Shown here: positions 13,352-16,194 of the stretch, one piece after another | Numbering within the stretch: the first letter of the stretch is position 1 | Layout of the letters: the number at the start of each line of letters is the position of its first letter | Sequence record: PP886230 | From: Escherichia phage vB_EcoM_E9.1 | Direction: 5' to 3' (one strand) | Length of the DNA: 64,000 nt | Notes under the pieces: model-generated | The model's input: the letters and a program-made list of their open reading frames with translations, nothing else | The model's database searches: none | Told to the model about the DNA's origin: nothing | Made by a program: the position numbers and the translations under genes

Positions 13352-14317
13352 GTGAAAAAGCTTGATTTAAATACAATTGCCGAAGAAGTTCTGGATGAAT
13401 GTTTTGCTAATGAAGAAGTCAACACACTAGAAGCCTTAGATTTCGTTGAAGATAAAGATGATAATGAAGGTAAAGTACAAAGCAGTTTCAAATATAATAT
13501 TACACTTAAGCGACCACCAAATGTTTCCAATGAAGATCTAATTCGTGATATTCAAGCTGGTATCAATGTAAAGAAAAACACTGAACTGTTAGTTCGTTAC
13601 AATTATGGACTGATTATTGATGTAGCAAGTAAATGTACTTGTTATATCCCATTTGAAGATAAGATTTCATATGGTGTTGAGGGGTTCATGAGAGCACTAA
13701 AAACCTTTGATCTTAATAAGAATGTTAAGTTCATTACCTATGCTTCTTCTAGTATTTACATGACAGTCTATAACGAAAGTTCTGACGCTAACTATATGGT
13801 ACACTTCCCACGTTATATGAGTGTTCATAAGATCAAAGTAAAAAGATTCTGCCAGGAATATATGCGTAAACATGGTGTTCGCCCAACACCTGAAATAATC
13901 TCAGAGGGTACTGGGATTGAGATTCAGCATGTTAATAATTGTTTGTTATTTCAAAGCGAATACACTTCGCTGGATGCACCATTAGACGGTGTTACAGATG
14001 GTACATTAGGTGACATTATTCATTCACCTGCTTCTGATTTTAACCTCAATGTTGATAGTATCCGTGCACCTTTGCGTTATGCTATCAATGAACTGACCAA
14101 CGAATTGAGTACTAAAGAACGTGAGATTATCCAGCGTGTTCATGGTCTAGGTGAATATGAACCTGAAACGCTTCGTGAGATTGCTGATAATGGTTTTGTT
14201 GATGATAATGGAAAATATGTTAAATCCCGTTCATCAATACATCGAAAGTACAGTGAAGCTATGCAAAAGCTTAAGAAGTTAGTACTTGCAAAAGGGTACG
14301 AATACGAAGATTTCTAA
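13352..14317 (+). CDS. phage-encoded sigma-70-family RNA polymerase sigma factor
   Basis: ORF 321 aa (GTG start after AGGAGA). Region-2-like segments (VRYNYGLIIDVASKC; FITYASSSIYMTVYN..FPRYM, compare RpoD FSTYATWWIRQ..RIPVHM) and a region-4-like HTH (LSTKEREIIQRVHGLGEYEPETLREIAD..SRSSIHRKYSEAMQKLKKL). Confidence 0.75.
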   Translation: MKKLDLNTIAEEVLDECFANEEVNTLEALDFVEDKDDNEGKVQSSFKYNITLKRPPNVSNEDLIRDIQAGINVKKNTELLVRYNYGLIIDVASKCTCYIPFEDKISYGVEGFMRALKTFDLNKNVKFITYASSSIYMTVYNESSDANYMVHFPRYMSVHKIKVKRFCQEYMRKHGVRPTPEIISEGTGIEIQHVNNCLLFQSEYTSLDAPLDGVTDGTLGDIIHSPASDFNLNVDSIRAPLRYAINELTNELSTKEREIIQRVHGLGEYEPETLREIADNGFVDDNGKYVKSRSSIHRKYSEAMQKLKKLVLAKGYEYEDF

Positions 14318-14325
14318 AGAACAAG

Positions 14326-14350
14326 GGTTGGCTTATGCCAACCTTTTTTT
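14326..14350 (+). terminator. intrinsic terminator
   Basis: Hairpin GGTTGGC-TTAT-GCCAACC followed by T7, directly after the sigma gene stop. Confidence 0.75.
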
Positions 14351-14874
14351 ATGGGATGAAGTAAAAGTTTGTGATATAATTATCTTGTACAATTCTGTTG
14401 GCATGATATTCATGTACCTGATCCACTCGAAAACGTAGAGGGCAGTTGAGCAGTCCGACAGTGCGAACAGCAAAAGAAACCCGTTAGATGTGGGCATAGT
14501 TTGAACCCCTCACGGCAATGCGGCTGTATAAAGAACCACGTTAGGATAGCTGGTGGTTCCTTGATAGACATATAAGGATAACACCTTACGAATTATCTAA
14601 GGGAGAGTTATCGAATTTTGTACAGGAAAGTTGCGTCCAAAATTTGAGTACTCACATTAAGTATTTGATTGCATAGATACTTAATGAAGATACACTATGT
14701 TTAAAAGTGTAGACCGTCATATGAAACTGAAGTAGAGAGAAACAGGATGACCCGCTTTCGCACTCTTTATGAGTAATCTTCAATGCAATAGCTCTGATAC
14801 CATCAGCGTCAAATTTCCCTCCTTGTGGGGGGAAGAAAAATCCCTTCCTCAAATCCCGTCAATATTAAAAGTCC

Positions 14875-14903
14875 TTGACAGTTATTAATCATTCGCGTAG
14901 AAT
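14875..14903 (+). promoter_or_regulatory. sigma70-type promoter
   Basis: TTGACA, 17-nt spacer, TAGAAT. Confidence 0.5.
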
Positions 14904-14967
14904 ACGTAGTATTAGAAGCGAACAGACATCTCGAAGAGATGGATGATTAACCATTAAGGAATATCAA

Positions 14968-15177
14968 ATGAATTCAGTAATCTTTTTAGTAGTCGCTTTC
15001 TCTGTTAATTCCGGTGTACAAATAACCCCAATGAATTCCATGAATCAATGCATAGCAGTACGTGATAGTACATACGAACAAGTAAACAAAGATATTTGGA
15101 TTACAGTTAGTAAAGAACAAATGTGGTGTTACAATAGTAATACTAACACAAAGCTTATTGTAGGACAAACTCAATGA
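14968..15177 (+). CDS. hypothetical protein
   Basis: ORF 69 aa; hydrophobic N-terminus. Confidence 0.5.
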   Translation: MNSVIFLVVAFSVNSGVQITPMNSMNQCIAVRDSTYEQVNKDIWITVSKEQMWCYNSNTNTKLIVGQTQ

Positions 15178-15405: not shown

Positions 15406-16194
15406 ATGAGCACTATAGATGAACTGATTCGACGGAATTCAAAATATTACCAACCATCAGAAATTGTAGGTAACATTACCAAATCAGAGTTTGGTCCAAA
15501 TACTCGAAAACTCATTCATGTAATGTCACGTGATGGCTTTAAATGTGATTGTTGCGGTGAATCTAATGTAGTATTCACTTTACACAAGCACAGTACTAAA
15601 GATCGTTATAAATTCAGACCTTATGTACTTAAAGGGAAACGCCTTGTACGCATGACGTTAGACCATAATGTACTGGACTGTCTTCAGGGCGGTAATGATA
15701 AAGAGAACATGACTGCACTGTGTGAAGATTGTAACGCATTACGCCAGCATAAGTTTGCTGAATACAGTGAGTTTAAACACTGGTATCATAACGCGGATCG
15801 TTCAATCGAGCCTGACGTTAACTACTGCTTCATTGAGTACATTAAGAATGCCAAAGATACATACATTCTTAAATCAATGTCACCTATTACCGTGTTTCCT
15901 GAGAACCTATTCACTACATTAAAGAATAGTTTTATTGTGGGTGATATTGATGCATTCAAGTATTTTGACAAAGGTGCAAAACATTTTGAAATTCAATGTC
16001 TTAGTACTGCACTATGTGAACTCATTAAAATTTACATAAAAGAGTATTTGGGTATTGACAATGTACGTGTACCAGAGTATACTTTTTCTATTGAATTCGA
16101 TTGTGAATCAATCAAAGAGTTTGGAATTCTTTTCAATAAACAAATAGAACTTGCAATTCAAAACGAAATCAAGTACTATACTACTAACATTTAA
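15406..16194 (+). CDS. HNH endonuclease
   Basis: ORF 262 aa; CDCCGE..LDHNVLDCLQGGNDKENMTALCEDCNALRQH matches the HNH His-Asn-His/zinc-knuckle signature. Confidence 0.7.
   Translation: MSTIDELIRRNSKYYQPSEIVGNITKSEFGPNTRKLIHVMSRDGFKCDCCGESNVVFTLHKHSTKDRYKFRPYVLKGKRLVRMTLDHNVLDCLQGGNDKENMTALCEDCNALRQHKFAEYSEFKHWYHNADRSIEPDVNYCFIEYIKNAKDTYILKSMSPITVFPENLFTTLKNSFIVGDIDAFKYFDKGAKHFEIQCLSTALCELIKIYIKEYLGIDNVRVPEYTFSIEFDCESIKEFGILFNKQIELAIQNEIKYYTTNI

Follow-up and report, generated by a model that had tools for sequence, protein, structure and literature searches.

Large phage RNAs and the locus under study

Only a few large RNAs are known to have a conserved tertiary architecture, and the majority of these proved to be ribozymes, the cores of ribonucleoproteins or, unexpectedly, assemblies that consist of RNA alone. 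Among the described systems, the ROOL and GOLLD RNAs are the closest in character to the element analyzed here, a non-coding segment at positions 14351-14874 of a stretch of 64,000 nucleotides (nt) from Escherichia phage vB_EcoM_E9.1 (sequence record PP886230); this whole stretch is hereinafter denoted the window. Like the RNA that appears to be encoded in this segment, ROOL and GOLLD are phage-borne, are several hundred nt long, contain many helices, several pseudoknots and conserved joining strands, show loop-loop pairings that are seen by covariation, and have no known protein partner or function. In the case of ROOL, a kissing loop that had been predicted from covariation to be a 'tertiary' contact proved to be intermolecular, holding the subunits of a nanocage together (PMC12286853).

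There are, however, clear differences. The present RNA matches no Rfam model of ROOL or GOLLD, in sequence or in structure; it is represented by 3-5 diverged paralogs per genome, in contrast to a single copy; it is located away from tRNA islands, with the nearest tRNA gene at a distance of ~12 kilobases (kb); and it is limited to a single clade of jumbo myoviruses that infect Enterobacterales and Xanthomonas. The RNA matches no described family and hence seems to represent a novel class of large viral RNAs, which resembles ROOL and GOLLD in character but is unrelated to them by sequence or model.

Within the same clade, a distant relative, the Pseudomonas jumbo phage PA5oct, encodes four non-coding RNAs (ncRNA001-004) of 236-619 nt that lack open reading frames (ORFs) and are transcribed from the plus strand, and two of these account for 1.2-5.1% of the phage reads each, depending on the time point (PMC7318152). 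One of the PA5oct RNAs lies between minus-strand genes, similarly to copy C of the family described here, whereas mutual paralogy, which is a hallmark of the present family, has not been reported for the PA5oct RNAs. Homology was tested and rejected: nhmmer with the --max option found no match at E-values up to 10, and the invariant motifs of the family are all absent. The 3' end of ncRNA004, which is located between minus-strand genes, reads UUUCCUUCCC-AAAC-GGGGAGGAAA (positions 1080-1115 of locus L108) and forms a CCC/GGG hairpin that resembles helix P15 of the present RNA; this could be a very distant analogue or a coincidence.

Comparative sequence analysis suggests with high confidence that positions 14352-14868 of the window constitute a gene in its own right, the product of which is a large structured non-coding RNA that belongs to a new family. 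The evidence is presented below, together with the alternatives.

A conserved, pseudoknotted fold

The structural model consists of 21 helices, numbered in window coordinates, and was derived from alignments of 37 and 45 sequences, the latter being the non-redundant copies, and from an all-against-all search for covarying stacks. The conserved core encompasses 478 nt on the plus strand and is recognized by the nhmmer profile of the family with an E-value of 2.9e-100 over 14401-14867; across the family, the RNA is ~480-570 nt long. In the alignment of 45 copies, 84.8% of the cells are paired under the model compared to 70.7% in shuffled alignments, none of the 500 of which reached the observed value, and 35-41% in slid controls. 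The number of pairs that changed on both sides is 76 in the model, 53.9 in the shuffles and 28-34 in the slid controls, and the respective covariation scores are 0.386, 0.148 and 0.065-0.090. Compensation is apparent even within a single genome: among the four copies of the coliphage JP4, GAACCAC/GUGGUUC alternates with GAACUCU/AGAGUUC.

At least 13 helices, pseudoknots included, show strong covariation, and eight helices, among them four pseudoknot helices, are 99-100% paired with compensatory changes. In this model, four pairs of helices cross each other (S1 and S2, P1 and P3, PKa and P4, PKb and P9), which implies at least three to four pseudoknots. In the robust helices, G-U cells outnumber A-C cells by 89 to 24, and this excess identifies the plus strand as the folded one. 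The joining strands GAAACCCG, CGGCnAnnCGGCnnnAUAAAG, CCnnGAUAGAnnUAU, AAGGGA, GACCGU, ACCCGC and CAAAnCnnGUCA are invariant in the 45 copies. Two features generally expected of a structured non-coding RNA are present, namely, compensatory pairing in excess of that in the controls and a conserved, correctly oriented promoter of its own (see below); together with the strand asymmetry, these support the proposal of the sequence-only reading that the gap harbors a structured RNA. To judge from the comparison of the sequences, the RNA fold is under purifying selection, promoter-equipped, strand-specific and represented by several ancient paralogs.

The individual helices and their support are listed in Table 1. 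At the 5' end, P1 pairs the beginning of the RNA with the loop of P3. In the next domain, the whole of the insert hairpin P5a is swapped for a UUCG loop in one copy (L085), and the tertiary triplet PKa shows 13 changes of G-C to A-U and one of U-A to C-G. The invariant joiner CCnnGAUAGAnnUAU separates P6 from P7; a role of the latter as a mimic of the Shine-Dalgarno or anti-Shine-Dalgarno sequence was considered and is ruled out by the free covariation of this helix. The loop of P9 that forms PKb is copy-specific, with the sequences AUUGCAU, UCAUAU, AUUGUAU and AUCGAAU in the JP4 copies A to D, respectively. In P15, the change of C-G to U-G is tolerated, and the outer pair changes from U-A to A-U. 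The possibility that P15 and the conserved tail represent a general architecture of early promoters is ruled out by the uniqueness of the tail motif in the window.

A hairpin module of ~31 nt (14614-14644 of the window), UUUUGUAC-A(G/A)NAUAG(U/A)U(G/C)CGUC-CAAAAUUUG, is found in different places depending on the paralog, namely, at the tip of P8, at the tip of P13 (the second site, A2 alignment columns ~510-545), at both tips (copy D) or at neither (copy C). It looks like a peripheral element that has been exchanged between the tips of two hairpins and might serve for docking or for the binding of a protein. A 9-codon ORF (UUG...UGA) within this optional module was examined as a candidate coding sequence and rejected given that its amino acids are not conserved and that it is absent from many copies.

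Promoter and ends of the RNA

The TATAAT hexamer that the sequence-only reading had suspected to be a -10 element is located at 14375-14380 and is extended by TG at 14372-14373. The motif TGnTAYART is found, in the same orientation, within 90 nt upstream in 42 of the 45 family copies, and TGnTATACT in two more, which suggests that this element indeed drives the RNA. Transcription is predicted to start at ~14387-14389, and in this copy 10 nt separate the end of the -10 element from the conserved core. A TGRRRY box is present in 39 copies, in 37 of these exactly 14 nt from the TG; it reads TGAAAC(G) outside Asteriusvirus and TGGGAT in this copy. The TGAAAC(G) type corresponds to the 'divergent RpoD-like' promoter class of phages CBB and GAP32, which is mostly found upstream of DNA-synthesis genes (PMC5259590). 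The -35-like box of the RNA promoters is unusual, and the phage sigma factor encoded upstream is a candidate for its reader.

The leaders, from the -10 element to the core, vary between 8 and 46 nt, and the core starts with the fixed motif AAYYCUG. In some paralogs, the leader holds a 5' hairpin that is terminator-like in the B-type copies. Near the other end, 19 of the 45 copies (this one not among them) contain a terminator-like hairpin of more than 25 nt inserted between P14 and P15; because P15 and the tail are conserved at the RNA level despite this insertion, the position of the 3' end is uncertain. Outside Asteriusvirus, several copies (L050, L081, L089, L018 and others) are followed, 60-110 nt 3' of the RNA, by two additional hairpins with compensatory changes, GAAUUGAGUU-hairpin-AACGAAAAUUC and UUGAC-N5-GAA-N5'-GGCAAAU. 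This hairpin pair is almost exclusive to the vicinity of the RNA (in loci of 10-14 kb), and the N5-GAA-N5' type is analogous to the hairpin at 14928-14942 of the window; these hairpins may extend the RNA at its 3' end or function as an operator.

Distribution and paralogs

The segment is 99-100% identical in the 121Q/PBECO4-like coliphages (Asteriusvirus), including JP4, with 100% identity over 801 base pairs (bp), and its core (~14417-14870) retains 66-72% identity in Eneladusvirus and Mimasvirus as well as in related jumbo phages that infect Erwinia, Serratia, Yersinia, Cronobacter, Pectobacterium, Salmonella, Klebsiella and Xanthomonas. Conservation in related phages, which the sequence-only reading had named as a check, is thus borne out, with 66-75% identity of the segment in distant genera and multiple copies in most records. 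Specifically, blastn searches matched 61-71 phage records, in 2-5 places each and in most of them in 3-5, and a query derived from CBB retrieved 71 phage records, with RaK2 and K64-1 among those that matched in part. A scan of IMG/VR with the conserved motif CGGCRAYRCGGCNNNATAAAG yielded 43 loci, 40 of which are true members, from jumbo-phage contigs. With a longer pattern, 48 loci were found in metagenomes and a single contig in 185,579 bacterial and archaeal species genomes; this 212-kb contig, from an Enterobacteriaceae metagenome-assembled genome, is presumably a phage. Taken together, these matches indicate that the family is confined to the Rak2-like clade.

No second copy of the segment was found within the window by blastn. 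The JP4 genome contains exactly four copies, all on the plus strand, at ~76.3, 201.4, 255.8 and 334.6 kb; the other three lie outside the window and were located in the JP4 genome sequence, the window-to-JP4 offset of 61912 being valid only near the element since the ends of the window differ from JP4. There are four types of paralogs within Asteriusvirus and about five outside of it, mutually 65-72% identical. The genomic position is held across genera by at least the paralogs B and C. In particular, two arrangements are shared by the coliphages and CBB: SbcD-SbcC-endonuclease VII (minus strand)-RNA-baseplate hub (minus strand)-portal, and RNA-174-amino-acid protein-methyltransferase-cytidylyltransferase. 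The shared synteny implies that the duplications are older than the genera. Thus, the analysis goes beyond the sequence-only reading: the element is one of four paralogs per genome and belongs to a clade-wide family of large, pseudoknotted RNAs, as opposed to a simple small RNA.

The C/gamma paralog is located between the genes for endonuclease VII and the baseplate hub, both on the minus strand, in JP4 as well as in CBB, and therefore cannot be the leader of a protein-coding gene. More generally, the classes of cis-regulatory leaders, such as riboswitches, T-boxes and attenuators, were rejected because the downstream genes differ between the paralogs and, in the case of C/gamma in JP4 and CBB, are on the opposite strand.

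The gene neighborhoods also bear on the possibility that the RNA is a cis-acting leader or processive antiterminator, similar to HK022 put or EAR although much larger, whereby the nascent RNA would modify its own RNA polymerase such that transcription from the promoter of the RNA continues past terminators and into the gene cluster on the downstream side. The resemblance to put is that the RNA directly follows a promoter, precedes terminators and blocks of genes, and would act without a dedicated ORF. Indeed, most copies are directly upstream of, and co-oriented with, blocks of protein-coding genes, no terminator precedes the next ORFs in this copy, and the terminator-like hairpin in 19 of the 45 copies has to be read through to make P15 and the tail. 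However, each paralog has different downstream genes, and downstream of C/gamma there are minus-strand genes in convergent orientation as well as a convergent terminator, such that one paralog lacks co-oriented downstream genes altogether; the ORFs downstream of this copy have a strong promoter of their own at 14875; and the terminator-like hairpin of the B type precedes the RNA core, where an override is impossible. Moreover, the known antiterminator RNAs consist of 70-120 nt, the present RNA is four to seven times larger than put, and it has no Rfam match. On this evidence, we consider an antiterminator to be distinctly improbable.

The dispersal of the 3-5 copies around the 350-kb genome, in conserved positions and in one orientation, might alternatively suggest that each copy is a cis-acting replication origin, where a persistent hybrid of the transcript primes the leading strand. 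The precedents are ColE1 RNA II, a promoter-driven structured RNA of ~500 nt, and T4 oriF/oriG, a case of several promoter-dependent origins in a single genome; the G-rich run near the 3' end of the present RNA (G6) is reminiscent of ColE1 RNA II and the T4 origin transcripts. An origin would also fit the promoter class, which is the one reported 5' of DNA-synthesis genes in CBB, and the presence of genes for a T4-like replisome and RNase H in the phage. Unlike ColE1 RNA II and the T4 transcripts, however, the present RNA has a pseudoknotted tertiary core and invariant joining strands, features that are more in line with a compact, free RNA than with an R-loop, and selection clearly acts on RNA folding. 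Furthermore, just downstream of the promoter the GC content is higher than that of the genome, unlike in an AT-rich unwinding element; the T4 origins are not known to be homologous to each other; and there is no inflection of the GC skew at the copies, a weak test here because the skew follows gene orientation. An origin transcript thus seems to us very unlikely.

Known RNA families and coding potential

The sequence-only reading had suggested a covariance-model scan and folding of the segment. The scan of the entire window with the 4227 models of Rfam 15 at the gathering score detected only three tRNAs; the region 14250-15000 at E-values up to 10 produced only terminator-like chance matches below 20 bits; and the same kind of result, with no family identified, was obtained for 13 loci of other family members. 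The model set includes RNase P, tmRNA, 6S, group I and group II introns, hepatitis delta virus (HDV)-like and hammerhead ribozymes, HEARO, ROOL, GOLLD, OLE and raiA. ARAGORN detected no tRNA or tmRNA at the locus, finding in the window only tRNA-Met, Asn and Thr at 174-2071. Neither the scan nor the folding of the single sequence (see below) singled out the segment, in contrast to the strong covariation in the alignment. No published description of this RNA was found in the full-text literature; PMC10690425 contains more than 10,000 candidate motifs, and the RNA could be one of these, without a name.

The size and the pseudoknotted core are features shared with large ribozymes and, along with the multiple copies, could indicate a self-processing ribozyme, which would excise itself from longer transcripts, or else a mobile-element relic, namely, a decayed intron or transposon, devoid of ORFs, that dispersed to several sites. 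The fixed AAYYCUG start of the core after leaders of variable length would fit 5' processing, and HNH genes are found within a few kb of copies A and D. Nevertheless, Rfam provides no match to group I, group II, HDV-like, hammerhead or other ribozymes. The string CAGAUGAG...CGAA resembles the hammerhead core, but in the 45 copies the positions equivalent to U4, G12, A13 and A14 vary, the junction reading (C/U)AG(A/U)UGAG-P3-C(G/A)(A/C/G)(A/U) as compared to the hammerhead core CUGAUGA ... GAAA, and a hammerhead ribozyme was accordingly rejected. Identity of 65-72% and the conserved positions of B and C are indicative of ancient duplication, not of recent mobility, and every copy is intergenic. 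A processing ribozyme or mobile relic therefore appears to be even less probable than an origin. A link with the downstream 262-amino-acid 'HNH' ORF, of the kind between IscB and omega-RNA, was rejected as well: this ORF has no Pfam match, and other copies lack such a neighbor. In addition, no similarity was detected between this ORF and the ORF 3' of the RNA in Serratia phage BF.

The annotation of the region differs between records: careful annotators leave it blank, whereas automatic pipelines place 3-6 tiny hypothetical proteins there. The GenBank record of UE-S1 contains an unexplained 'repeat_region' over the 5' third of the RNA (1691-1848 of locus L002, corresponding to ~14390-14550 of the window); apparently, an annotation tool noticed the paralogy without interpreting it. 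These annotations might be taken to support the view that there is no functional RNA and that the segment is a double-stranded DNA site, for protein binding or packaging, or encodes small proteins. This view is already largely refuted and, in our opinion, scarcely tenable. The compensatory changes preserve pairing, not sequence, the asymmetry between G-U and A-C is strand-specific, and the indels are not multiples of three. Furthermore, there is no conserved ORF among the 45 copies, in which the ORFs of at least 40 amino acids differ in strand and position, with 8 copies containing none at all. Translation of a short ORF, which had been named as the observation that would speak against a non-coding RNA, thus finds no support in the comparison of the copies.

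A likely mode of action

We lean towards the interpretation that the RNA acts in trans as a folded particle, by analogy with the large RNAs described above. Under this scenario, the RNA would be transcribed by the host RNA polymerase, directed either by sigma-70 or by the phage sigma factor encoded just upstream, and the terminal hairpins would stabilize it. The trans-acting species would be a compact folded particle that consists of RNA only or is bound by protein, and it might be a homo-oligomer held together by the copy-specific 7-bp PKb, although PKb could also be intramolecular. Antisense pairing, coding or a function as a DNA site would not be involved.

Several observations weigh against this interpretation or against some of its parts. 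The expression of the RNA is inferred from sequence, and the trans action and oligomerization are based on analogy. The only RNA-seq data in the wider clade come from PA5oct, the four non-coding RNAs of which are not detectably homologous. Most copies are located just upstream of genes on the same strand, which fits a role in cis as well. The 3' end of this copy is undefined because no terminator separates its core from the next promoter, and a terminator-like hairpin inside the conserved element, as found in 19 of the 45 copies, is awkward for a single discrete RNA. The helix P14 is poorly supported, being 21% paired in the window register and ~50-100% paired per pair, without covariation, in an alternative register. 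Finally, the folding energy of the single sequence is unremarkable (z = -1.7, on both strands), so the case rests on the comparative data; minimum-free-energy folding cannot represent pseudoknots.

It is conceivable, if rather on the unlikely side, that this is a new class of catalytic or self-assembling RNA. Either PKb would be intermolecular and each paralog would, similarly to ROOL and GOLLD, form its own homo-oligomeric particle in the infected cell, or the pseudoknotted core would be a new ribozyme.

Genomic context of the locus

The description of the locus in the sequence-only reading holds: the strong terminator in front of the segment, the near-consensus promoter at 14875, the absence of a credible ORF and the elevated GC content were all recovered. 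The ORFs within 14351-14874 are short and overlap each other on both strands, the largest being an antisense ORF of 66 amino acids (14652-14852), and none is conserved in position or strand across the 45 relatives. The GC content of the segment is 0.399 compared to the window mean of 0.345 (standard deviation 0.036), and 6% of the 524-bp windows are equally GC-rich. The non-coding stretch extends beyond 14874, up to the next start codon, ATG at 14968.

Directly 5' of the RNA gene lies a gene for a phage-encoded sigma-70-family protein (13352-14317) that contains the Sigma70_r2, r3 and r4 domains (regions 2, 3 and 4), and its terminator forms the 5' boundary of the RNA locus. Downstream, the 262-amino-acid ORF (15406-16194) is annotated as 'HNH endonuclease' in JP4 and 121Q and has no Pfam match at E<0.01. 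The tRNA genes Met-CAT, Asn-GTT and Thr-TGT are located at 174-330 and 1998-2071 of the window, and belong to a tRNA island, further members of which (Gly, Ser, Arg, Ser, Ser, Met) are found upstream in JP4. In JP4, ~58 small ORFs are annotated twice in tandem, at 125983-146000 and 146097-166000 (CDS0264-0321 and CDS0332-0389; 184-20205 and 20298-40300 of locus L006), and the start of this region corresponds to the end of the window, from ~62.7 kb. The tandem series looks like the ~20-kb direct terminal repeat of these phages, assembled head to tail; the terminal repeat of phage Sharanji is 20,668 bp long (PMC11895373).

Table 1. Sequence and structural features of the RNA locus (window coordinates; 'paired' denotes canonical pairing in the alignment)
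Feature	Position	Strand	Description and support
Intrinsic terminator of the upstream sigma-70-family gene	14323..14350	+	10-bp stem (14323-14346) and T-run
Predicted RNA-gene promoter	14352..14380	+	-35-like TGGGAT (14352-14357), 14-nt spacer, extended -10 TGATATAAT (14372-14380)
Conserved core of the structured RNA	14391..14868	+	nhmmer profile, alignments, covariation
5' pseudoknot domain	14395..14464	+	P1 crosses P3; P1 encloses Hp1 and P2
P1	14395-14401 with 14455-14461	+	8-bp register at least 93% canonical at each of 8 pairs; AU, CG, UG alternate
Hp1, variable hairpin	14402-14414	+	inside P1
P2 hairpin, loop GAAAACGUA	14418-14445	+	82% paired; 7/8 pairs change on both sides
P3	14450-14452 with 14462-14464	+	100% paired; 20 and 3 double changes
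P4-P5 domain	14467..14527	+	P4, P5, P5a insert, joiner CAAUGCG
P4 ACAGC/GCUGU	14467-14471 with 14523-14527	+	100% paired; 7, 13, 22 double changes
P5 CCGU/ACGG	14481-14484 with 14512-14515	+	100% paired
PKa, tertiary triplet	14518-14520 with 14569-14571	+	AUG of joiner CAAUGCG with CAU; 100% paired
P6 hairpin GAACCAC/GUGGUUC	14533-14559	+	94% paired; 6/7 pairs change on both sides
P7 hairpin UAAGG/CCUUA	14573-14588	+	84% paired; 4/5 pairs change on both sides
Single-stranded AAGGGA	14599-14604	+	invariant in 45/45 copies
P8 hairpin, optional module UUUUGUACAGGAAAGUUGCGUCCAAAAUUUG	14605-14653	+	base covaries
P9-P10 region	14657..14712	+	
P9, long hairpin	14657-14684	+	loop AUUGCAU 14668-14674; 87% paired; 8/8 pairs change on both sides
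PKb, 7 bp	14668-14674 with 14783-14789	+	P9 loop with 3' strand; 94.3% paired; 6/7 pairs change on both sides
P10 hairpin	14692-14710	+	84% paired; 4/4 pairs change on both sides
3' pseudoknot complex	14716..14789	+	S1, S2, P12, P13, PKb 3' strand
S1	14716-14720 with 14747-14751	+	100% paired
P12	14728-14732 with 14778-14782	+	stacked on PKb 3' strand; 99.6% paired; 5/5 pairs covary
S2	14735-14739 with 14755-14759	+	crossed by S1 (H-type pseudoknot); 99.1% paired
P13 hairpin	14762-14774	+	90% paired
P15 hairpin UUCCCUCC-UUGU-GGGGGGAA	14815-14834	+	7-11 bp hairpin folds in 45/45 copies
Conserved tail CAAAUCCCGUCAA	14850-14862	+	motif only at this locus within the window
Sigma-70 promoter of the downstream ORFs	14875-14903	+	TTGACA-17-TAGAAT, 11/12 positions matched
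Downstream promoter and leader, outside the RNA core	14875..14967	+	leader hairpin CAUCUC-GAA-GAGAUG (14928-14942)

Implications for the phage clade

The recognition of this RNA corrects the annotation of the gap: the 3-6 'hypothetical proteins' in many records are spurious, and the same probably holds for the three other copies in each genome. Throughout an entire clade of 350-kb phages, the genomes maintain, at fixed positions, 3-5 diverged copies of an RNA that is ~480-570 nt long and contains at least three pseudoknots; the hosts of this clade include E. coli, Salmonella, Klebsiella, Erwinia, Yersinia, Serratia and Xanthomonas. The RNA is open to direct study because several of the carrier phages grow on E. 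coli K-12. If the catalytic or self-assembling interpretation turned out to be true, four or five genes of each of these jumbo phages would be dedicated to an RNA machine that has no cellular counterpart.

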